From IMG/VR virus record IMGVR_UViG_3300033463_005840, positions 69,200 to 133,199 of that record: a stretch of DNA of 64,000 nucleotides; one strand, written 5' to 3'. Under the pieces are notes generated by a model. The model was not told where the DNA came from, ran no database searches, and worked only from the letters and a program-made list of their open reading frames with translations. Positions 30,688 to 57,744 of the stretch are shown here, piece after piece (the first letter of the stretch is position 1; the number at the start of each line of letters is the position of its first letter). A program made the translations under genes and the position numbers. Source of the stretch: a virus (taxonomy: Duplodnaviria > Caudoviricetes).

Positions 30688-31518
30688 ATGATTCATGTTT
30701 TATTATATGATGTTATGCCGTATGTTTATTCGGCGTATTTCGGAGCTATCTCTTTTTTGAAATTGGAAGAAGTTACGGCTGCGGTCGAGGATAATCTCTT
30801 ACTGGTCTCTAAGCAATTATTGATAAAAAAACTTCAACAGCCGTTTCAGAATTTATCCGGCAACTTTCTTCCGGTCTACTGTTATGATGATTTTCCGAAA
30901 CGCAAGAAAGAACTTTATCCCGAATATAAAGAAAATCGTAAAAAGAAAGATGACTCCAAGAAAATGTCTTTCCGAGTCAGAAACACTCTGCTTTTATCGG
31001 TTAAAAACAGAGATGGATATCATCTAAGTTCTCCTGATGAAGAGGCCGATGATGTTATTGCCACCGCTAAAAAAATGATTGATGAAAAATTGAAAGGTCA
31101 AGATTATAGAATTTATATATTAAGTACGGATAACGACCTCTTGCAATTGACGGATGACCACACAGTTTGCGTTGACATTATGAAAGGGAGCTGGGGGATA
31201 ATTAAAGATAAAACATACCTTGCAGAAAAATATGGACTCAATAATTTCAAAAAAGTCTTGTTACATAAGATATGTTTTGGTGACACTTCGGATAATATCA
31301 AGGGAATTATAAAGCCACACACCAGAAAAGCTCCGATTATCGCAAAGATAAATGAGTGTAATAATCTTAAAGACTTCGTATTGGATAGTGGATTTGTCGC
31401 TAAAGAAAAAATACCGGAAGTCAAGAAACTGATGAATCTTATAATATTAAGAGATAATTTACCGTGTAAAATTACCTGCAATGAAGGAAACACTTATTTT
31501 AAAGGGATTTCACTATGA
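30688..31518 (+). CDS. 5'-3' exonuclease (FEN/T4 RNase H-like)
   Basis: YKENR, EADDVIA, STDNDLLQL, GDTSDNIKG. Confidence 0.9.
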   Translation: MIHVLLYDVMPYVYSAYFGAISFLKLEEVTAAVEDNLLLVSKQLLIKKLQQPFQNLSGNFLPVYCYDDFPKRKKELYPEYKENRKKKDDSKKMSFRVRNTLLLSVKNRDGYHLSSPDEEADDVIATAKKMIDEKLKGQDYRIYILSTDNDLLQLTDDHTVCVDIMKGSWGIIKDKTYLAEKYGLNNFKKVLLHKICFGDTSDNIKGIIKPHTRKAPIIAKINECNNLKDFVLDSGFVAKEKIPEVKKLMNLIILRDNLPCKITCNEGNTYFKGISL

Positions 31519-33407
31519 CCGATTCTTTTAATAACATCGAGATAATTGAGCAGAAGTTTGAGGAGTATACGCTTAATAATATGGATGAAGTTCTTAAACA
31601 CATCGAAAGGTGCGGAAAGAACTGTTATAAATCCGAAAAAAATATAACGGAAACGTCTGCCGAAAAATTTATTGACAATATCTTAAAATCAGGGCATGAG
31701 TCAGTCATTGAACACGCTCATTTCATCTTTAAAATGAAGATTGAAGATGCCGAATTATTGTTCAATAAAATAGGTTATCCGGCATTGTCAGAATTAAGGG
31801 GTTTAAATATCACTCAGTATTCTGATGACCGCCAAACGCATTATTATATAATATCCGGCAATCCCAGAACTTTTCGGGATATATATAGAGTAAGCGGGGT
31901 TTATGTCTTTTTAGATAAGCTGCCTGAAATCTTTTCTAAGTATTTAGGTAAAGATGGTACTTTTAAATTAACAGGCAAAACGGTTGAACCGGAAACATAT
32001 GAATTAGTTGGTATTCAAAAGTCAGACTATGGCGATAAGCATAATTATTATACTTTCAGGTTTGACACCTCGATTTCAACTTATAAAGACATAACCAGAC
32101 ACAGAAATCTTAGTTGGTCAATCGAAAGCACACGTTATTGTGTAGCAGGAGATACTAAATTAAAATTCAGTAATGCACATCATAATTATAATGTGAAGGA
32201 TTTATACAATAAAATCCACGTCAATCCTCCTTCTAATGCTAGTTGGAAAAGGATTAAGATAAGACAGCTGAATGAAAATACTGGAGTTTTAGAGTTTGCT
32301 AAAATAAAAGATGTTCTATACATGGGCAAAAAACCTGTCTTACAGATTAAAACTCGTCTTGGCTATGAATTAAAGTGTACTAAAGAGCATCCTATATACA
32401 GTAAAGACGGCTATATAGAAGCAGGTAACTTAACATTAGGAAATGAGATTTATATAAATGGTAAAGATATAACTGAAAAACCTCTTTATCAAGACAAAGA
32501 CTGGCTATATTATCAAAATATAACTTTAAATAAAACTTTTGCACAAATAGCTAAGGAATTTTCTTTTAATGCGAATACTGTAAAAAAGTGGGGAGCAAAA
32601 TTAGCATTGCCTAAAAAGGGCACAGGTTATTTTAATAAAGGAAGGATTCCATGGAATAAGGACTTACACGAAAAAGATGATAGTCGTGTAAAAATACAAG
32701 CGGACACTTTAAGGGAATTTAGATGGGATAAGTGGCACGATACAGAGAAACTTAAAAAATTAGGCAAGCGTTCTTATAGAAAAATGATTAAAGATACATG
32801 TGAAATATGTTCTTCAAAAGAAGGTTTGCAAGTACATCATATAGATTGTGATAGAGAGCATAACGATAATAATCCTAACAACCTAATAACACTCTGTCCT
32901 AAATGTCACGCTGGAGTACACAGCAAAAATCTAACGATTGCAGTTTTAGACCCAGTTGTTGAAATTAAAGAATTACCTGCTGAAGATGTTTATGATATAG
33001 TTATGGATAGTGAATACCATAATTTTGTCGCTAATGGTGTTATAGTTCATAATTGTAATTACTCTAGGAAAAACGAAAACGGCAAGATTAAGATTGTTGA
33101 TTGCTCTTATTTTATGACTCTGCAAGAACATCAATTATATCTTAACGAGATGGACAAGATGGCCGCTAAGTATAATGTAATGGCAAAAGATTTTGAAAGT
33201 AAGCCAGATGTTCTTAGAATGATTTTGCCGCATGGAACCGCTGCATCTGTGGTTATGAGCGGTAGCGTTTACGATTTGAAAAAAATGTTGGCTTTAAGAA
33301 CTGATATCCATGCTCATCCGACAGTTCAACATGATATGAAAGAGATTGAAAATTTAATTCAAAAAGATTCCAAAGAAATTTTGTTTTTGGATAGAAGAAT
33401 GGTCTGA
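31515..33407 (+). CDS. thyX: Flavin-dependent thymidylate synthase with intein
   Basis: GHESVIEH, RHR..SWSIESTRY|C, R.ILP, LR..HAH. Confidence 0.9.
   Translation: MTDSFNNIEIIEQKFEEYTLNNMDEVLKHIERCGKNCYKSEKNITETSAEKFIDNILKSGHESVIEHAHFIFKMKIEDAELLFNKIGYPALSELRGLNITQYSDDRQTHYYIISGNPRTFRDIYRVSGVYVFLDKLPEIFSKYLGKDGTFKLTGKTVEPETYELVGIQKSDYGDKHNYYTFRFDTSISTYKDITRHRNLSWSIESTRYCVAGDTKLKFSNAHHNYNVKDLYNKIHVNPPSNASWKRIKIRQLNENTGVLEFAKIKDVLYMGKKPVLQIKTRLGYELKCTKEHPIYSKDGYIEAGNLTLGNEIYINGKDITEKPLYQDKDWLYYQNITLNKTFAQIAKEFSFNANTVKKWGAKLALPKKGTGYFNKGRIPWNKDLHEKDDSRVKIQADTLREFRWDKWHDTEKLKKLGKRSYRKMIKDTCEICSSKEGLQVHHIDCDREHNDNNPNNLITLCPKCHAGVHSKNLTIAVLDPVVEIKELPAEDVYDIVMDSEYHNFVANGVIVHNCNYSRKNENGKIKIVDCSYFMTLQEHQLYLNEMDKMAAKYNVMAKDFESKPDVLRMILPHGTAASVVMSGSVYDLKKMLALRTDIHAHPTVQHDMKEIENLIQKDSKEILFLDRRMV
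32139..33053 (+). mobile_element. Intein (305 aa) with HNH endonuclease
   Basis: CVAGDT..TKEHP..VYDI..VHN|C; CEIC..VHHID..NN..NL.TLCPKCH. Confidence 0.92.
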
Positions 33408-35733: not shown

Positions 35734-35782
35734 TTAAGTTAGTGCCGTTCTGACGAAGGGCGGCACTCAGCTCTTTTAGAGG

Positions 35783-35811
35783 TAAATCGAAAAATATTAA
35801 AATTCATAAAA
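35783..35811 (-). repeat. Left inverted repeat of tnpB-like gene
   Basis: 16-bp core 35790-35805 is the reverse complement of 37205-37220. Confidence 0.75.
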
Positions 35812-35850
35812 CATGTTTACTTTTGATTCAATTTAAAATACAATATTATT

Positions 35851-37197
35851 ATGTTAACTTTAAAGATTAAATATTCCGTTCAAGACTGCTTTAAAGATAC
35901 TATCTCTGATTATCAGAGACAGTATAATAATCTATTACACCTCTTTTACAATAGATTAAAGGAGGGTATATCAGAAACAGCTTGCAAACATCTTTCTTTT
36001 AATAATCTTGAACTGATGAACAGCTGGCTTAGGCAATCTTGTGTTAAAGATACTAGTTATCTAATAAAAGATTTTAAGGATGATGCTATTCTCTTTGGAG
36101 GTAAGAAACTCTTTGAAAAAAGATTTAGAAAGAATATATCTAAAGAAGAATTTAAAGAAAAAAGATTAGTCCCTTTTATGTCAGCTGGAGATAGTAAGCG
36201 TAAGGGTAATAGATTATTTAGGTTAGTGGAATCTTTAGACCGAGTTATCTTTCAACCAAAAGCAAATCTTAAAATCTCTTTGACTCTTATAGGCGTAGGT
36301 AAAAACAGGATAAAGATTCTTAAAAAGTTATATCAGCATCAATTAGCTTGTGATTTACCTATAACTTATAAATTAGATAAACAATACATTTATATAACCT
36401 TTGATGAGGTAATCCTTCAAGAGAAATTAGTTAAACCTACCGAAAATAGGATAATGTCTATCGACATGAATCCTAATTATATAGGGTACTCAATTTTAGA
36501 CTGGAAAGATTCTGAAAAATTTGAGGTTGTTAAAACAGGTATCATATCTTTAAAGAATTTGAATGATTATGATAAGTCTTTAAAAGACAAAAAACTTCCC
36601 GCAACAGATTCCGAAAGAATTTATACCTATAACAAGAGAGTATACGAAACTTTAGAATCCTCTAAGTATCTTATCAAACTAGCTGAACATTACAAGTGTG
36701 AATGTTTTGCTATTGAAGACTTAAATATGAAATCTAAAGACTTAGGTTATGGAAGAGTTAATAATAAACTCATTTTAAATAACTGGAACAGGAATAAGTT
36801 AGCATCTAATTTAGAAAAGCGCTGTAATATATTAGGAATCAAATTTTTAAAAGTGATTCCTAACTATTCATCTATTATAGGTAACTTAGTTTATAGAGAT
36901 TTACAGTTACCTGACCCTATTCTAGCATCTATTGAAATTAGTAGAAGGTGCTACGAATTTAATCTTCAATATGTTAAGAAGATTAAAACTAAGACAAAGA
37001 ATATAGTTCTACCAATTCTTGAATCACTAAAAGATAAAGTAAAACACTCATTGGAAGAAGTAAAGTGCTTTATTGATTTTGAAAATTGGCAGCAATTATT
37101 TTCTTTGTTAAAGAAATCTAAACTTAAATATAGATTTCCTTTCAAAGAGAAAGTCTTTCAGACAAAAACTTTAAGATTTGTTAATCAGTTTTACTGA
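35851..37197 (+). CDS. tnpB: TnpB/Cas12f-like RuvC protein lacking the zinc finger
   Basis: RuvC-I SIDMNP, RuvC-II IEDL, RuvC-III PDPILAS; YSSIIGN in place of CxxC; TTTACT-17-TACAAT promoter, leaderless. Confidence 0.8.
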   Translation: MLTLKIKYSVQDCFKDTISDYQRQYNNLLHLFYNRLKEGISETACKHLSFNNLELMNSWLRQSCVKDTSYLIKDFKDDAILFGGKKLFEKRFRKNISKEEFKEKRLVPFMSAGDSKRKGNRLFRLVESLDRVIFQPKANLKISLTLIGVGKNRIKILKKLYQHQLACDLPITYKLDKQYIYITFDEVILQEKLVKPTENRIMSIDMNPNYIGYSILDWKDSEKFEVVKTGIISLKNLNDYDKSLKDKKLPATDSERIYTYNKRVYETLESSKYLIKLAEHYKCECFAIEDLNMKSKDLGYGRVNNKLILNNWNRNKLASNLEKRCNILGIKFLKVIPNYSSIIGNLVYRDLQLPDPILASIEISRRCYEFNLQYVKKIKTKTKNIVLPILESLKDKVKHSLEEVKCFIDFENWQQLFSLLKKSKLKYRFPFKEKVFQTKTLRFVNQFY

Positions 37198-37228
37198 TTT
37201 TAACGAATTTTAATATTTTTGATATTTA
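37198..37228 (+). repeat. Right inverted repeat of tnpB-like gene
   Basis: ttttaacgaattttaatatttttgatattta. Confidence 0.75.
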
Positions 37229-37251
37229 ATATTCGCAGTTATCGGTCAGCC

Positions 37252-37268
37252 ATATATATATATTTATA
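37252..37268 (+). promoter_or_regulatory. Phage promoter motif
   Basis: ATATATATATATTTATA. Confidence 0.65.
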
Positions 37269-37302
37269 GGTTACTGTTTTTAATTTTTTGAAAGGTTTAG
37301 AT

Positions 37303-38205
37303 ATGTTGAGAAATTTTATGGAAAAAAAGAAAGATAAACGTAATAGAGTTTTATCTAATTTAAGATTTAAAAGAAAGCTGTTAGCAAAAGCCAGACAGAT
37401 GGTTTTGTCCGAAGACCAGACTCAGAGAGATAGAATTAACGCTTTGGCGAATTTTCTTGGTCTTTCCGGCAGAGAAAAAAGAAAAATCAAAGTAAGTGAT
37501 TATGATGATTACACTTTTACTTATGGTGATGAAGAGTATATGGTTTTAACCGATTCAGAGGCGGATGATAGAGCTGTCGAAGAAATCCAAAATATTATTG
37601 ATGACACGGGTTTGCAAGCTTTTTCTTCTGAAGCACAAGAATATATCTTAGATAATTTTTGTTCTTGGGACTGGGAAAGCGACTTGCATGATGGTAACAT
37701 GAGTTATGCCTATGATGTCTGGGAAGAGTCAGATGACGAATATGGTAATCATGCGATTCGAGAGTTTTATGAAAGAACTGATGGCACAGATTCTTTTGGA
37801 AAAACAGTAGGTGGTTTTGCATTAGTTCGTAAGGACAATAATATAAAAGACGAAGACCCAATTATCTTTTCTACAAAACAAGAGGCTTTGGATTTTATAA
37901 ATGAGAGAAATCTTAGAATCTCTGATTATAAAGATATCGTTTTTGATGAAAAATTTGTTGACAAAGACTATGTTTGTGAGCAGTTAGCTTATTCTATGGA
38001 TGATGTTTATACGTCAGCATCGGAATATTTGCGTGATTCCGGCGGACTTGACAGTGATTGGTTAATAAACTGCCTAGACGTTGAAGCTATTACTCAATAT
38101 TGTATAGAAAAGGATGGCCGTGGACATAACTTAGCCAGATATGACGGATACGAAAACGAAATAGACTACGAGGGTGAAACTTATTTTATTTATCGGATGA
38201 ATTAA
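37303..38205 (+). CDS. Acidic putative DNA-mimic protein with basic leader
   Basis: EYMVLTDSEAD..DGRGHNLARYDG.E..YFIYR; very D/E-rich. Confidence 0.55.
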   Translation: MLRNFMEKKKDKRNRVLSNLRFKRKLLAKARQMVLSEDQTQRDRINALANFLGLSGREKRKIKVSDYDDYTFTYGDEEYMVLTDSEADDRAVEEIQNIIDDTGLQAFSSEAQEYILDNFCSWDWESDLHDGNMSYAYDVWEESDDEYGNHAIREFYERTDGTDSFGKTVGGFALVRKDNNIKDEDPIIFSTKQEALDFINERNLRISDYKDIVFDEKFVDKDYVCEQLAYSMDDVYTSASEYLRDSGGLDSDWLINCLDVEAITQYCIEKDGRGHNLARYDGYENEIDYEGETYFIYRMN

Positions 38206-38221
38206 TTATCAGGGGTTTTAT

Positions 38222-39334
38222 ATGATTTATGCAGTTATTGGTCAGCCGTTTACGGTAAATGCAGAGATTAAAAACGATGACGGTACTCCGTTTGCCGTTA
38301 ATACTCCCGTTACATATAAAGTGTATGATTTTAATGATACCTTTATTTTACAGGGTAGTGCAATTCAGGATTCTCAATTACCAACGAATTGGCTTGCTCA
38401 TTTCACGCTTCCGGTTACTGCTCCTACCCCGAATGATTTTAGCAACGAACAATATTCGATTGAATTTGAAGCCGTTTATAATAATCTTATTATTAAAAGT
38501 AAGTTATATTTTCAAGTCTTAAATCAAGCAGAACCGGAAGCGCATGATTCTAATATTGTTATCTTAGATAGAAGTCCGGTTATTGATTCTTTAATAACTC
38601 AATTCTCTGTTACCTCTTATAGTGTTAAGATTACCGATGAGTATGACAATATTCTTTATCAATTTACAGAAGATAATCCAACTTCCACTTTAATTAATAA
38701 TGAGTATGTTACTAAGTTTAACAGTGGTAATTTTAATTTAAGCGCCGGTGACGGTATGTTCCCGTATCTTATTATTTATACATATACTATGGCGAATAGT
38801 CAGACAAACACCGAGATTCATCCAGTGTATGTAATGAACTCAGCGATGATGCTTGCCGTTAACGATATGCGTATGTATTTAGATAAAGCGAGAAATTATG
38901 ATATTGACCCGTCTTTGAGATGGACGGATGCGGAGTTATCGCATTTTATTATGAGCGGTTTACAAAGATTTAATGCAGCGAATCCGGCGGTTACAAATTA
39001 TAATATAAATAGCTTTCCTAAGTATTTGTTTTATATGCTTGTTAAAATGGCAGAGGTTGAAGCGCTGAACGCTTTGTATCTTGCTGAAGGAATGAGAGCG
39101 TTTAATTTCACTGGCGCTTCTACTACACTTGAAGTTGACAGGACGCAGTATATTAGCACTAAAATGGACGAAATTAACGGGTGGCTTAATGATAATCTTA
39201 CTAACGCAAAAACGCTGTTAGTAAAGAGAATGTTTGGTGCCGGTGTCAATGGTATTTCACTGACATCAGTGACGAACAGAATCGGATATAATTGGAGAAG
39301 TCCTATGTATATTCGTATGTTAAATTCTTTATAA
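38222..39334 (+). CDS. Virion structural (neck/adaptor-like) protein
   Basis: Beta-rich N-terminus; helical MRMYLDK..WTDAELSHF C-terminus. Confidence 0.45.
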   Translation: MIYAVIGQPFTVNAEIKNDDGTPFAVNTPVTYKVYDFNDTFILQGSAIQDSQLPTNWLAHFTLPVTAPTPNDFSNEQYSIEFEAVYNNLIIKSKLYFQVLNQAEPEAHDSNIVILDRSPVIDSLITQFSVTSYSVKITDEYDNILYQFTEDNPTSTLINNEYVTKFNSGNFNLSAGDGMFPYLIIYTYTMANSQTNTEIHPVYVMNSAMMLAVNDMRMYLDKARNYDIDPSLRWTDAELSHFIMSGLQRFNAANPAVTNYNINSFPKYLFYMLVKMAEVEALNALYLAEGMRAFNFTGASTTLEVDRTQYISTKMDEINGWLNDNLTNAKTLLVKRMFGAGVNGISLTSVTNRIGYNWRSPMYIRMLNSL

Positions 39335-39398
39335 AAGTTGTTTACTTTTGGTTGAGAGTTTATTATAATATGATTATAAATAAAAGGAGTAAAATAAT

Positions 39399-39907
39399 AT
39401 GATTAGAAACAGGTTTTAAGAGATAGGTTATATAACAGACGTAGAATTTTATCTGCTGAAAATAAATACAGACCAGGTGAGTTCGGTTTCTTGTGGACTG
39501 TAATTAAAGGGAAGCCGGATATAGAAGGTACAGATTACGAAGGTAGCATAGACTGCCACGGATATAAACTTACTTCGTTAAGAGGTGCTCCTAGAGAAGT
39601 TAGTGGTAATTTTGATTGTTCCGATAATCAACTCACATCACTCGAAGGCGCTCCTGTAGAAGTTGGTTGGGGTTTTAATTGCGGAGGTAATCAACTTGAT
39701 TCATTAGAAGGAGCTCCTGAGCGAGTAGGTGACTTGTTTGATTGTGGTCATAATCGTTATCTCGCCTCATTAAAGGATGCCCCTGTGTATGTCGGCAGAG
39801 GTTTTTATTGTCGTTATTGCAAAAATCTTTCCAAGGAAAATATTATGCACCTTAGAAGTTATTGTAATATTGACGGTGTAATTAAATCTGATTATGGTGA
39901 GTTTTAA
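39399..39907 (+). pseudogene. LRR-like repeat protein with frameshift near codon 6
   Basis: F.C..NQL.SLEGAP repeats; ATG 39399 (AAGGAG RBS) hits TAA; one extra T would join it to frame LRDRLYNRRRILSA. Confidence 0.6.
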
Positions 39908-39930
39908 TTTAAAAGATAAGGAGTCAAAGA

Positions 39931-40275
39931 ATGATTAAAAGAAATTTTAAAAACAGAGTTACGGCTAGCAATGACTTTTTTATAGAAGGTTCTTCCATAA
40001 GTTATAACGTTAAGTATGTTCAAGATGATAATAAAACAGGAATACTTTCACGATATTTTAGAGTAAAAGAAAGGAATACGATTGAAGGTATTAAAAATCT
40101 TATCAATCGTCTGTATAAAGCCTATGGCATAGAGGTTTTTAAGTTTCTTCCGTATGAACATGGTGAAATTGAGATTGTATTTTCTCAAGATGACCATGTA
40201 ATAGGTTGCATTTATTTAAATGACGGCGTTATTATCGAATCTATGGATATAGGATTATACTTAAAGGAAAAATAA
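39931..40275 (+). CDS. Hypothetical protein with basic leader
   Basis: MIKRNFKNRVTAS. Confidence 0.55.
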   Translation: MIKRNFKNRVTASNDFFIEGSSISYNVKYVQDDNKTGILSRYFRVKERNTIEGIKNLINRLYKAYGIEVFKFLPYEHGEIEIVFSQDDHVIGCIYLNDGVIIESMDIGLYLKEK

Positions 40276-40325
40276 AATGGCAGGCGTAAATTTTAATAAA
40301 GGTTCTTGGGAATTAAGAGCATTAA

Positions 40326-40754
40326 ATGCAAAACCAGCAATTAACAGATTATTGTGTAGTATGTGGCAGACGGGATAACTTGGAAGCTCACCACGTTATC
40401 CCGATTTGCTATGGCGGTGACAAAGACGGTTTGCAGATTAACGTTTGCGAAACGTGTCATGCAAATATTCATAGAACCGCCGAAAGTATGCTTGCTAAAA
40501 CTGTTAAGGCTAAAAACTTCTTTACTTCGCAAGAGCTGCTTAAAAAAGCTGCACCTTATGTAAAGGCTGTTATCGATGCTAAAAGGAATTATCAAGAAGG
40601 CAACGTTTCACAAGATTTACGGAAACGCCGGCTTATTATTGTAGAGATGACTGATTTTGAATGGAAACGCCTTCATAAAAGAAAGCTGGATGCCGGATAT
40701 AAAAGTCTGGAAAAATATATACAAGATTTATTAGTAAGTCAGACTAGATTTTAA
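40326..40754 (+). CDS. HNH endonuclease with C-terminal DNA-binding-like segment
   Basis: CVVCG..EAHHVIP..GG..CETCH..H. Confidence 0.85.
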   Translation: MQNQQLTDYCVVCGRRDNLEAHHVIPICYGGDKDGLQINVCETCHANIHRTAESMLAKTVKAKNFFTSQELLKKAAPYVKAVIDAKRNYQEGNVSQDLRKRRLIIVEMTDFEWKRLHKRKLDAGYKSLEKYIQDLLVSQTRF

Positions 40755-40763
40755 AGGAAAAAT

Positions 40764-40861
40764 TATATATATTTACAAGTAATATGTTATTTTTAATAGA
40801 TTAAGGAAATAGTCTGTTTAAGACTAGCATATGAAAAAAGACTATTATGTATATTTATAAA
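40764..40861 (+). repeat. Promoter-hairpin-promoter cassette, copy 1
   Basis: Similar to 42004-42100. Confidence 0.6.
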
Positions 40862-40876
40862 GGAAAGGAAAAAGTT

Positions 40877-41554
40877 ATGAATGTTGATGTTAAATTTATG
40901 AGCAAGTTGATAGAAGAATTTAAAGATGACTATAGAGTTGAAGATTGTTATCGGGCTCTTCTTGCTTTGGAATTATCTAAAGAATTTGGTATATATTTTC
41001 GTTATGTTGATGGCAAAATTTCATGCGAAGCTTTAGGTTTTGCGAAATATATGAATGAATTTCATAGCTACGAGTCACTGAGACAGACCATTGAGAATAT
41101 GCTCGGTAGTGATTATAACGATGTAAAATTGAAAGATGCTTTCGATTATGATTTTAGTTATTCTGGTAAGGGTTTAAGGTTTGATGAGGATAAATTTGGT
41201 GCTTTTAGATTTGTGGGTAGGTTTTTGTCACCTGATATAACGCCAATTTTTCATGTAATGCTATATGTCTTAGCAGGGGAGGTTCCGGAAGATTTTAGAG
41301 AAGCCAATGCTTTTGAAGATAAGGCTCAGAAATATTCAAAAGACCACCAATACTCTTCAGATTGCCTGTTTGAGAATTATAAACACCTTAATACTGGCAA
41401 CTGGATTGACCTCGGTAAAGTTGTTGATAAATTCTTTGATGGCATTTCCCTTAAAATATTCAAGAACGGAAATGGTTTAATTAAAGGGTTAACTAACGAA
41501 GAGTGGGAAAGAGCTTTATATTTGCAAGATGTTTGCACAAAGAAGCTCCGCTAA
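40877..41554 (+). CDS. Hypothetical protein
   Basis: ORF after AAGGAAAGG. Confidence 0.6.
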   Translation: MNVDVKFMSKLIEEFKDDYRVEDCYRALLALELSKEFGIYFRYVDGKISCEALGFAKYMNEFHSYESLRQTIENMLGSDYNDVKLKDAFDYDFSYSGKGLRFDEDKFGAFRFVGRFLSPDITPIFHVMLYVLAGEVPEDFREANAFEDKAQKYSKDHQYSSDCLFENYKHLNTGNWIDLGKVVDKFFDGISLKIFKNGNGLIKGLTNEEWERALYLQDVCTKKLR

Positions 41555-41561
41555 TTTGAAT

Positions 41562-41614
41562 AAAAATCCCTCCTGCTTAAAACAAGAGGGATTTTTGTTA
41601 TATATATTTATAAG
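41562..41614 (+). terminator. Terminator abutting phage promoter motif
   Basis: aaaaatccctc..gagggattttt then TATATATTTATAAG. Confidence 0.75.
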
Positions 41615-56267: not shown

Positions 56268-57744
56268 GTGAACTACTGCCACCTTAAAAGGTGTCAGCTT
56301 CTGTTTTCGCTTCATCGACTCTACTTGCATAACAAATCTCTATTAAGAGATTGTGATGTAGAGGAAGATGTCTCAGCGGAGGCTTGTTCCAAGCACTCAG
56401 CTCTTTTAGTTGAGCCAAACATCTTTATGTTCTTAGCAGCATGGATATCTCTATCTTCAGAATAACCACAGCTACAAGTATAAACTCTATCAGCTAAAGT
56501 TAATTGATTAAGATTCCCACAATTAGGACAAAACTTAGTAGTAGGTAAATTTTTTGAAATCATAAAGGCTTTTCCTTCAGACTGTAGCATCTGAAGTTGA
56601 GTTTTTAATCTTCCAAGTATAGAATGTTGAATCTTCTTTCCCATAGAATAACCGCACTTTCTACCGGTTTTCTTAGAATGTTTTCCTTTATGCCAAGCTT
56701 TAACCATCTCATCTTGAAAGTAAATTATATCATAATTACTCTTAAGATAAGAGATTATCTTGTTACAAGCATCATTTCTTTTATTTGTGAGATGCTGATA
56801 CTCACACCTAATTTGTTTAAGAAGTTTGTAATATCGCTTAGAACCTTTCTGCTTACGATGTAAATGCTTTTGTAAGTATTTCAGTTGTTCACTTTCTCGC
56901 ACATTACAATCAAATTTCTTACCATCAGATGTGGTAACACTGATTTTAACCCCAAAGTCTAATCCAACTTCCTTATAAGTTTTCTTAGACTCTAAAGCAT
57001 CTTTATCAATACAAACGGCTATTTTTACAAAATAACCATCTGGTCTTTTAATTAACCTCCCTTCAGCTAATTCATATTTTTGATATTTATTAAGTTGCTC
57101 CAAACCATAAACCGTTAAGTTCTTAAAGCCTGGAATAGTTATATGTCTCTTATTCTTAATTTTAGTATATCCGGTTATTATCGGAATGGACTTAATCTCA
57201 GAGACATATTTAAGCTTTCCAATCTTTTTACCTTTTTTCTTAGCTTTTGAAAGATTAGTTATGTTAGTTTTTAGTTGAACTATAAGCCTTCTATGATAAA
57301 CACTAGGAATATCCAACTTTTCAATTATTTTATTCTTATCTTTATCAAACCGGCTAACTTCTCTATGTTCTGTATACTTATAATCGAAAATATCCTGAGT
57401 TTCACTATAAGCTAGCATATCATTATAAATCCACTTAGCTTGCTTAAAGTAAGAGTTAAGAGTTTCAAATGTTTCCTTAGAAGTATGATGACAATTAACC
57501 TTCAACTCAAATACTTTAATTACTTGAGTTTTTCTACGTTCTCTCGTAGCATTACGGGTATCACGTATTCTTTGTCGCTCTTCAAGCGTTATAAACTCTT
57601 TACTCATTTTTGACTTAAAAATTATTTTTTCATTATTAATTCAAATATATCATATTTTCAATTTCTTGTAAATAGTTATTTTCAAAATTTTTCAAAAATT
57701 TTTTGATTTCTAAATGCCACCCTAAAGGGATAGCATCTTGCGAA
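56268..57744 (-). mobile_element. IS200/IS605-family tnpB-only element
   Basis: Inserted 3' of TTGAT, subterminal hairpins at both ends, ends in TCAC, no TSD. Confidence 0.88.
56321..57607 (-). CDS. tnpB: TnpB RNA-guided nuclease
   Basis: GLDFG, FQDE, CPNCG..CSCG, DRDIHAAKNI. Confidence 0.92.
   Translation of the reverse strand: MSKEFITLEERQRIRDTRNATRERRKTQVIKVFELKVNCHHTSKETFETLNSYFKQAKWIYNDMLAYSETQDIFDYKYTEHREVSRFDKDKNKIIEKLDIPSVYHRRLIVQLKTNITNLSKAKKKGKKIGKLKYVSEIKSIPIITGYTKIKNKRHITIPGFKNLTVYGLEQLNKYQKYELAEGRLIKRPDGYFVKIAVCIDKDALESKKTYKEVGLDFGVKISVTTSDGKKFDCNVRESEQLKYLQKHLHRKQKGSKRYYKLLKQIRCEYQHLTNKRNDACNKIISYLKSNYDIIYFQDEMVKAWHKGKHSKKTGRKCGYSMGKKIQHSILGRLKTQLQMLQSEGKAFMISKNLPTTKFCPNCGNLNQLTLADRVYTCSCGYSEDRDIHAAKNIKMFGSTKRAECLEQASAETSSSTSQSLNRDLLCK

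Follow-up and report, generated by a model that had tools for sequence, protein, structure and literature searches.

The 24 nt that directly follow the right end of a solo-tnpB element at 35784-37229 are a diverged copy of codons 2-9 of the head-tail connector gene located 1 kb downstream, and they occupy the position from which a TnpB-type nuclease would take its guide. We regard it as probable that this flank is the leftover of the start of a second connector allele (allele A), left in the guide slot by recombination after the element had inserted there. The element was found in a window of 64,000 nt (the whole stretch of DNA analyzed, positions 69,200 to 133,199 of IMG/VR record IMGVR_UViG_3300033463_005840), and its host replicon is that of a 214-kb, lytic-type jumbo phage.

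The ORF at 35851..37197 (+ strand) encodes a protein of 448 aa, whose AlphaFold (AF2) model (pLDDT 89.7) displays a Cas12f/TnpB-type fold with a split RuvC domain. Foldseek comparison of the model retrieved Cas12f, ISDra2 TnpB, ISFba1 TnpB, Cas12k, and Fanzor2 (probability 1.0, E 6e-9 to 9e-4), and the RuvC residues D205, E289, and D355 were invariant in an alignment of 50 homologues. The modelled fold together with the invariant D-E-D triad indicates that the ORF encodes a TnpB-superfamily nuclease with an intact RuvC site, in agreement with the first-pass annotation of this DNA, in which the ORF adjoining the 24-nt copy had been read as a tnpB. Among the curated sequence models, TIGR01766 ("TnpB-related") gave the sole match (E 2.8e-5; 24.5 bits, below the cutoff of 32). 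No Pfam family, OrfB_IS605 and Cas12f1-like TNB included, was matched by the nuclease even at E 10, the PHROG search yielded no match, and the PDB sequence search yielded nothing meaningful. Moreover, the CxxC...CxxC zinc ribbon between RuvC-II and RuvC-III is absent, the region reading ..VIPNYSSIIGNLVYRDLQLPD.. without cysteine pairs, and the same holds for the family consensus; the protein is thus referred to here as a zinc-finger-less TnpB-like nuclease.

The element has a GC content of 27%, compared with 33-35% in its neighbours. Its left end (35784..35812, + strand) starts AA|ATCG, similar to the AA|ATCC of a related element (L004), and both left ends begin AAATC. At the right end, alignment of the 3' regions of the six closest elements revealed conservation through ...TTTTTGATATTTAA and none beyond TTTAA, the last base of which is 37229. 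The two junctions, GGT-AA-ATCG on the left and ATTT-AA-TATT on the right, are compatible with the pattern of the AA core in L004. A dinucleotide common to both junctions is expected for a serine recombinase. The boundary at 37229 places the 24-nt copy exactly in the guide slot, as TnpB elements take their guide from the sequence immediately past the right end (Karvelis 2021 PMC8612924; Meers 2023 PMC10055086). The first-pass annotation had located the copy where TnpB guides lie, and the six-element alignment, which sets the right-end boundary at 37228/37229, bears this out.

The predicted omegaRNA scaffold occupies 37000..37229 (+ strand), overlapping the 3' end of tnpB and ending at the right-end boundary, and the RNA upstream of this boundary has a predicted fold with a z of -3.67 over 261 nt. 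It includes a conserved 8-bp stem at 37113-37138 and a long terminal hairpin (37163-37220) with the stop codon inside it, after which the single-stranded linker GATATTTAA runs up to the boundary. One stem apart from this hairpin shows two compensatory pairs. A long hairpin spanning the stop codon, followed by a linker of 8-9 nt, was predicted for the window element and for three relatives (L018, L027, and L025), with z values of -6.2, -2.8, -4.3, and -3.4, respectively, and with divergent sequences. As folded in these predictions, the hairpin and linker at the right end are arranged as in a TnpB omegaRNA. Rfam, searched with a permissive E-value, returned sub-threshold noise only.

With respect to the family, an exhaustive HMMER search recovered homologues in 977 clusters, and an alignment-based search identified 168 loci in IMG/VR, mostly on phage contigs of 100-670 kb and often in several copies per genome. 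A query with the single protein had detected no related loci, whereas the alignment query succeeded; with megablast, the region had no match among 50,697 phage records. ISCaje4, annotated in Campylobacter phage CP220, belongs to the family, as do copies in Lak megaphages, and the element at 35784-37229 is one of these known ISCaje4/IS607-type insertion sequences of large phages. An IS607-type serine-recombinase tnpA lies immediately upstream of tnpB in L004, L020, and L025, and CP220 retains a resolvase-like fragment as a tnpA remnant. In the window copy tnpA is absent, the distance from the left end to the tnpB ATG being 67 nt, which, given the tnpA of the relatives, makes this copy a non-autonomous derivative. 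In many other loci (L029, L035, L036, L038, L041, L047, L049, and others) TAG codons break the tnpB frame when it is read with table 11. A reassigned stop codon is probable in these phages, and the family would have spread across this code boundary.

The right ends of the relatives were located close to the starts of genes. In the closest relative (L018, 65% identity), which also has no tnpA, the right end adjoins the ATG of a 321-aa ORF (L018:5371-5381), and the terminal sequence AGGTGTTTA|ATG appears to provide the ribosome-binding site of this gene. The annotated element of CP220 ends 5 nt before the next gene (L117:3928-3936), and the L004 element lies 33 nt upstream of the ATG of the orthologous connector gene. 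From the right ends of these three elements it follows that the family prefers gene-start positions. The L004 site belongs to a group of four sister contigs (L001-L004, 92-95% identical). In L004, tnpA-tnpB is located between ...TTTTAA and TTTTTACAATAATTC..., and the sisters L001 and L003 (93-95% identical) are empty and read ...TTAA|TTTTTACAATAATTC..., with a flank that matches L004 perfectly, demonstrating precise insertion without target duplication and with the AA dinucleotide at both junctions; this comparison of filled and empty sites agrees with the boundary obtained from the six-element alignment. In the fourth contig (L002:5960-6000), a patch of about 40 nt immediately before the connector ATG has diverged from L001, L003, and L004, with conserved flanks and an identical adjoining coding sequence. 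This patch coincides exactly with the target of the L004 guide, and it may represent escape from the guide or the trace of a repair event. The part of the earlier reading that concerned the neighbouring gene stands in this respect, a related element being found beside the orthologous connector and its sisters being empty or diverged. No empty site was found for L018, the guide of which is unique in its own complete 314-kb genome, and the left ends of L020, L025, and L027 could not be placed.

The 24 nt in the guide slot of the window element (37229..37252, + strand) read ATATTCGCAGTTATCGGTCAGCCA, and codons 2-9 of the connector gene (38225-38248) read ATTTATGCAGTTATTGGTCAGCCG, both strings being present where the first-pass annotation had reported them. 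The two share 19 of 24 bases, and their 17-mer core, GCAGTTATCGGTCAGCC, differs by one base. When the core was searched in the 64-kb window with up to two mismatches, it matched at these two places alone, and 100 dinucleotide-preserving shuffles gave an expectation of 0.00, confirming that the flank is a recoded copy of the connector start 1 kb downstream. The window is AT-rich, which favours short repeats and could in principle produce such a similarity by chance; given the shuffle expectation and the location of the match (in frame, at a gene start, and exactly on the element boundary), chance can practically be dismissed as an explanation.

The two copies differ at positions 3, 5, 6, 15, and 24, and four of these five differences fall at third codon positions, the remaining one being a Phe/Tyr exchange. 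Under random placement, at least four of five differences would fall at third positions with a probability of about 0.045 (own arithmetic). Owing to this bias, the copy looks like another allele that diverged while coding rather than a local duplicate decayed in place, suggesting from the pattern of substitutions that the guide-slot copy and the resident gene are two coding alleles. The guide part of the earlier reading stands, both for the position of the 24 nt, which is exactly that of the guide slot, and for their nature as an allele-like copy of the connector start. The copy has no ATG and reads TTTA|ATA TTC. Either ATG changed to ATA at the start codon, which would give M-F-A-V-I-G-Q-P, with an N-terminal length as in the homologue P0153 (MIAIIGQ), or a loss of three bases occurred.

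The homology to the connector ends at 37252, and from 37253 a phage promoter motif follows (TATATATATATTTATAGG, 37253..37270, + strand), which precedes ORF305. The first-pass annotation had described the copy as terminating at the next promoter motif, and 37253-37270 indeed carries TATATATATTTATA. In the window, TATATATATTTA[TC]A is present at 12 sites (0.45 expected), most of them on the + strand and just upstream of genes; 3710, 34215, 37255, 40764, 41599, and 46020 are among these sites. The motif is likely a phage promoter and possibly also a recombination joint. ORF305 (37303..38205, + strand; 300 aa from its ATG), to which no function is assigned, lies between the guide and the connector gene and has almost no homologues. 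Neither the ArdA gene nearby nor the 353-aa gene located after the 58-aa gene in the relative L115 is detectably related to ORF305. L115 is 86% identical over the 58-aa gene, and the homology is gone right after the stop codon, indicating that the region is mosaic.

The connector gene itself (38222..39334, + strand; guide-like site at 38225-38248) is the resident allele, hereafter allele B. Its ORF matches PHROG 17327, head-tail connector (E 1e-26), and also proteins annotated as connectors in phages phiRSL1 and Lu11. Its nearest relative, with 82% amino-acid identity, starts MIYAIIGQPF as in the resident allele, and the gene neighbours of that relative differ from those in the window. An identical connector gene is also present in the assembly of another sample, on a 4416-nt Logan contig of SRR10393135 corresponding to approximately 37192-41608. 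The estimated start of this contig lies about 37 nt before the junction of right end and guide, its end is another copy of the promoter motif, and records of the identical TnpB protein come from two contigs only, neither in the size class of the 4416-nt contig; the contig ends may reflect population heterogeneity at the element boundary. In addition, a free-standing HNH endonuclease gene (142 aa, 40326-40754) is located 1 kb downstream of the connector gene and is a candidate for a second homing nuclease in the neighbourhood. The ThyX (Thy1) gene at 31515-33407 is split by an intein with an HNH endonuclease, according to PHROG and the Pfam families Thy1, Intein_splicing, and HNH.

The arrangement of promoter, ORF305, and connector gene allows a second origin of the copy, namely a local duplication of the connector 5' end produced when a promoter-ORF305 cassette was inserted, with TnpB arriving later in an unrelated event. 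The dispersed 12-copy promoter motif could have acted as the recombination joint of such a duplication, and ORF305, nearly without homologues, looks like an accessory cassette. However, the homology starts within 0-1 nt of a boundary that was defined independently, a coincidence that is unlikely, the third-position bias is not expected of a non-coding duplicate, and the relatives show a family preference for gene starts. We therefore consider an origin by local duplication improbable.

For the preferred history, in which the flank is a remnant of allele A, two steps are proposed. First, the element would have inserted at or immediately before the start codon of connector allele A, so that the DNA just past the right end, (A)TATTCGCAGTTATCGGTCAG, became the guide. 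Second, recombination would have joined a segment comprising the promoter, ORF305, and connector allele B after codon 9, so that nothing but 24 nt of allele A, about one guide length, was retained. The analysis established the fold, the catalytic triad, the element boundary, the homology to the connector, and how insertions compare among relatives; the order of these events and any present-day cleavage are inferences. The empty site predicted by this history is ...CTCTTTTAGAGGTAA joined directly to T(A/G)TTCGCAGTTATCGG. The ribonucleoprotein would be programmed for element-free starts of connector A in co-infecting relatives, which is classical TnpB homing. The resident allele B would be spared: over 20 nt it has four mismatches (guide positions 2, 4, 5, and 14), of which three are TAM-proximal, and its 5' context differs as well, being ..TATGA compared with ..GGTAA at the left junction. 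A matched TAM-proximal seed is required by ISDra2 TnpB. The resistance that the earlier reading had attributed to the resident allele thus holds to the extent that this allele is mismatched in the predicted seed. Several points count against the proposed history. The 24-nt remnant has no ATG, and the reconstructed empty site, AGAGGTAA|TG, would place the ribosome-binding site only 2-3 nt from the start codon. Allele A is missing from the databases searched, and the nearest relative of the connector (82% amino-acid identity) begins like the resident allele. The match of the left flank to another locus is left unexplained by this history. Finally, of approximately 45 other family loci, none has its right flank repeated within 4 kb.

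The relatives anticipated by the first-pass annotation, with a connector gene that begins as the guide does, were not found in IMG/VR, in the JGI metagenomes, or among 42 homologue clusters, the lineage being barely sampled in the databases searched. The exact 17-mer had 13 matches in IMG/VR, which by a rough estimate is about the number expected by chance for a collection of this size. A degenerate back-translated search for M-I-[FY]-A-V-I-G-Q-P had no match in IMG/VR and one in the JGI metagenomes. The single JGI match was rejected as a connector allele; it is GC-rich and internal to an unrelated ORF, and therefore a chance match.

A different reading of the same guide, which the first-pass annotation had favoured, is that it is kept by selection for RNA-guided intronless homing directed against rival connector alleles in co-infecting phages. 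Repair from this genome would then co-convert tnpB, ORF305, and the resistant allele, or, as an allele-exclusion device, the nuclease would kill the competitor, and discrimination would depend on substitutions, the linked resident allele being recoded at seed positions, rather than on the presence or absence of the element. Several observations are consistent with such a drive: the remnant matches one guide length almost exactly and lies between the right end and the promoter, the nuclease triad and the RNA scaffold appear intact from the sequence, the resident allele differs at three seed positions by mostly synonymous changes, and, in the sister phages of a related element, the site at one and the same gene is either filled, sensitive-empty, or diverged. 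Against it, the sensitive allele was not found in IMG/VR, the JGI metagenomes, or the 42 homologue clusters, the 5' context of the real gene start (..ATGA) is unlike the TAA-type left flanks at the two known junctions, this is a single case without recurrence in the family, and a recombination relic predicts the same sequence without selection. The arrangement may be a relic of the original insertion site, and the drive component of the earlier reading is accordingly retained here only as a possibility with perhaps one chance in a handful or slightly better.

The left side of the element shows two further repeats. The ends are imperfectly inverted over about 30 bp (35784-35812 and 37198-37228), with a 16-bp exact core, GAATTTTAATATTTTT. 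L018 lacks this inverted repeat, but a comparable left/right complementarity exists in L025, upstream of tnpA, and the inverted ends are probably transposase-binding ends. The left flank (35741..35783, + strand) consists of the terminator hairpin of the 58-aa gene and CAGCTCTTTTAGAGGT, and within it 35763-35779 is an exact 17-mer copy of 56393-56409, in the 3' end (omegaRNA region) of a second tnpB. This canonical tnpB (56321-57607, minus strand; 428 aa), with Pfam matches to OrfB_IS605 and Cas12f1-like TNB, is located 19 kb away. Such a 17-mer match is not expected by chance (0 in shuffles). It might be taken, together with the inverted repeat, as part of a dual-guide or mini-CRISPR-like unit, in which the inverted right-end copy at the left yields an outward guide matching the other tnpB. 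However, the minus-strand RNA over the left end has a z of +0.61, with no significant structure, only the 3' arm of the hairpin is duplicated at the left end, L018 is without the repeat, the complementarity in L025 fits transposase-binding ends, and the 17-mer stops 4 nt short of the element boundary. A dual-guide unit is thus very improbable, and a second, leftward guide RNA from the left end is not supported, given the minus-strand fold and the lack of conservation of the repeat in L018. The history proposed for the right flank does not account for the left-flank 17-mer.

Among known systems, ISCaje4 of CP220 (annotated as IS200/IS605-family; NC_027997.1 128167-129880) is similar to the window element, with a TnpB of 42% identity over 83% of the query, no zinc finger, a match to TIGR01766 only, a large phage as host, and a right end a few nt before a gene start. 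It differs in that ISCaje4 has a resolvase-like (IS607-type) tnpA remnant and the window copy none, and in that its right flank is the start of the adjacent gene, whereas that of the window element is a fragment of a gene 1 kb away. With the homing systems of IS605/IS607 elements (ISDra2 etc.; PMC8612924, PMC10055086), the window element shares a RuvC nuclease, a guide position past the right end, a predicted scaffold overlapping the 3' end of tnpB, and a predicted target consisting of the element-free site, the filled site being protected because the TAM is displaced. Unlike these systems, the window nuclease has no match to Pfam OrfB_IS605 or to a zinc ribbon, its cognate target has been replaced in cis by a mismatched allele, and, the host being a lytic-type jumbo phage, homing would need co-infecting genomes.

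The locus also resembles the intronless homing of T4 SegF, SegG, and MobE (Belle 2002 PMC155333, as cited in PMC13565253) in having a free-standing nuclease gene beside a conserved gene, a proposed target in a rival allele, a resident allele protected by substitutions, and flanking markers that would be co-converted; it differs in that recognition would be by an RNA guide and not by a protein, and in that the sensitive allele was not found in the databases searched. The nuclease-dead TnpB-like repressors of phages (TldR; PMC10705468) likewise have a guide that matches a gene start or promoter region away from the transposon end. However, TldR proteins have lost the RuvC catalytic residues, whereas the D-E-D triad of the window nuclease is intact (invariant in 50 homologues), which sets it apart from a TldR, and the window guide has seed mismatches to the resident gene.

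TnpB homing has been demonstrated within bacterial chromosomes and plasmids. In a 2026 review, homing of TnpB into co-infecting phages is treated as theoretical only, and intronless homing is listed for protein endonucleases only (PMC13565253). In the literature searched, no description was found of a guide that is an allele-like copy of the start of an essential gene located 1 kb away. The locus described here, together with the filled, empty, and diverged sites in L001-L004, provides a concrete case in which TnpB homing between phages can be tested, with a defined guide, a defined target in an essential gene, and, in cis, an 'immune' allele with natural mismatches. Provided that the nuclease and its RNA are active, cutting of a matching co-infecting genome would be lethal or would force repair from this genome. 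Should a guide-matching allele be cut and the resident allele be spared, RNA-guided allele competition among phages would be established and a compact, zinc-finger-less TnpB clade characterized; should it not be cut, the locus would document how recombination can strand a TnpB guide away from its original target.
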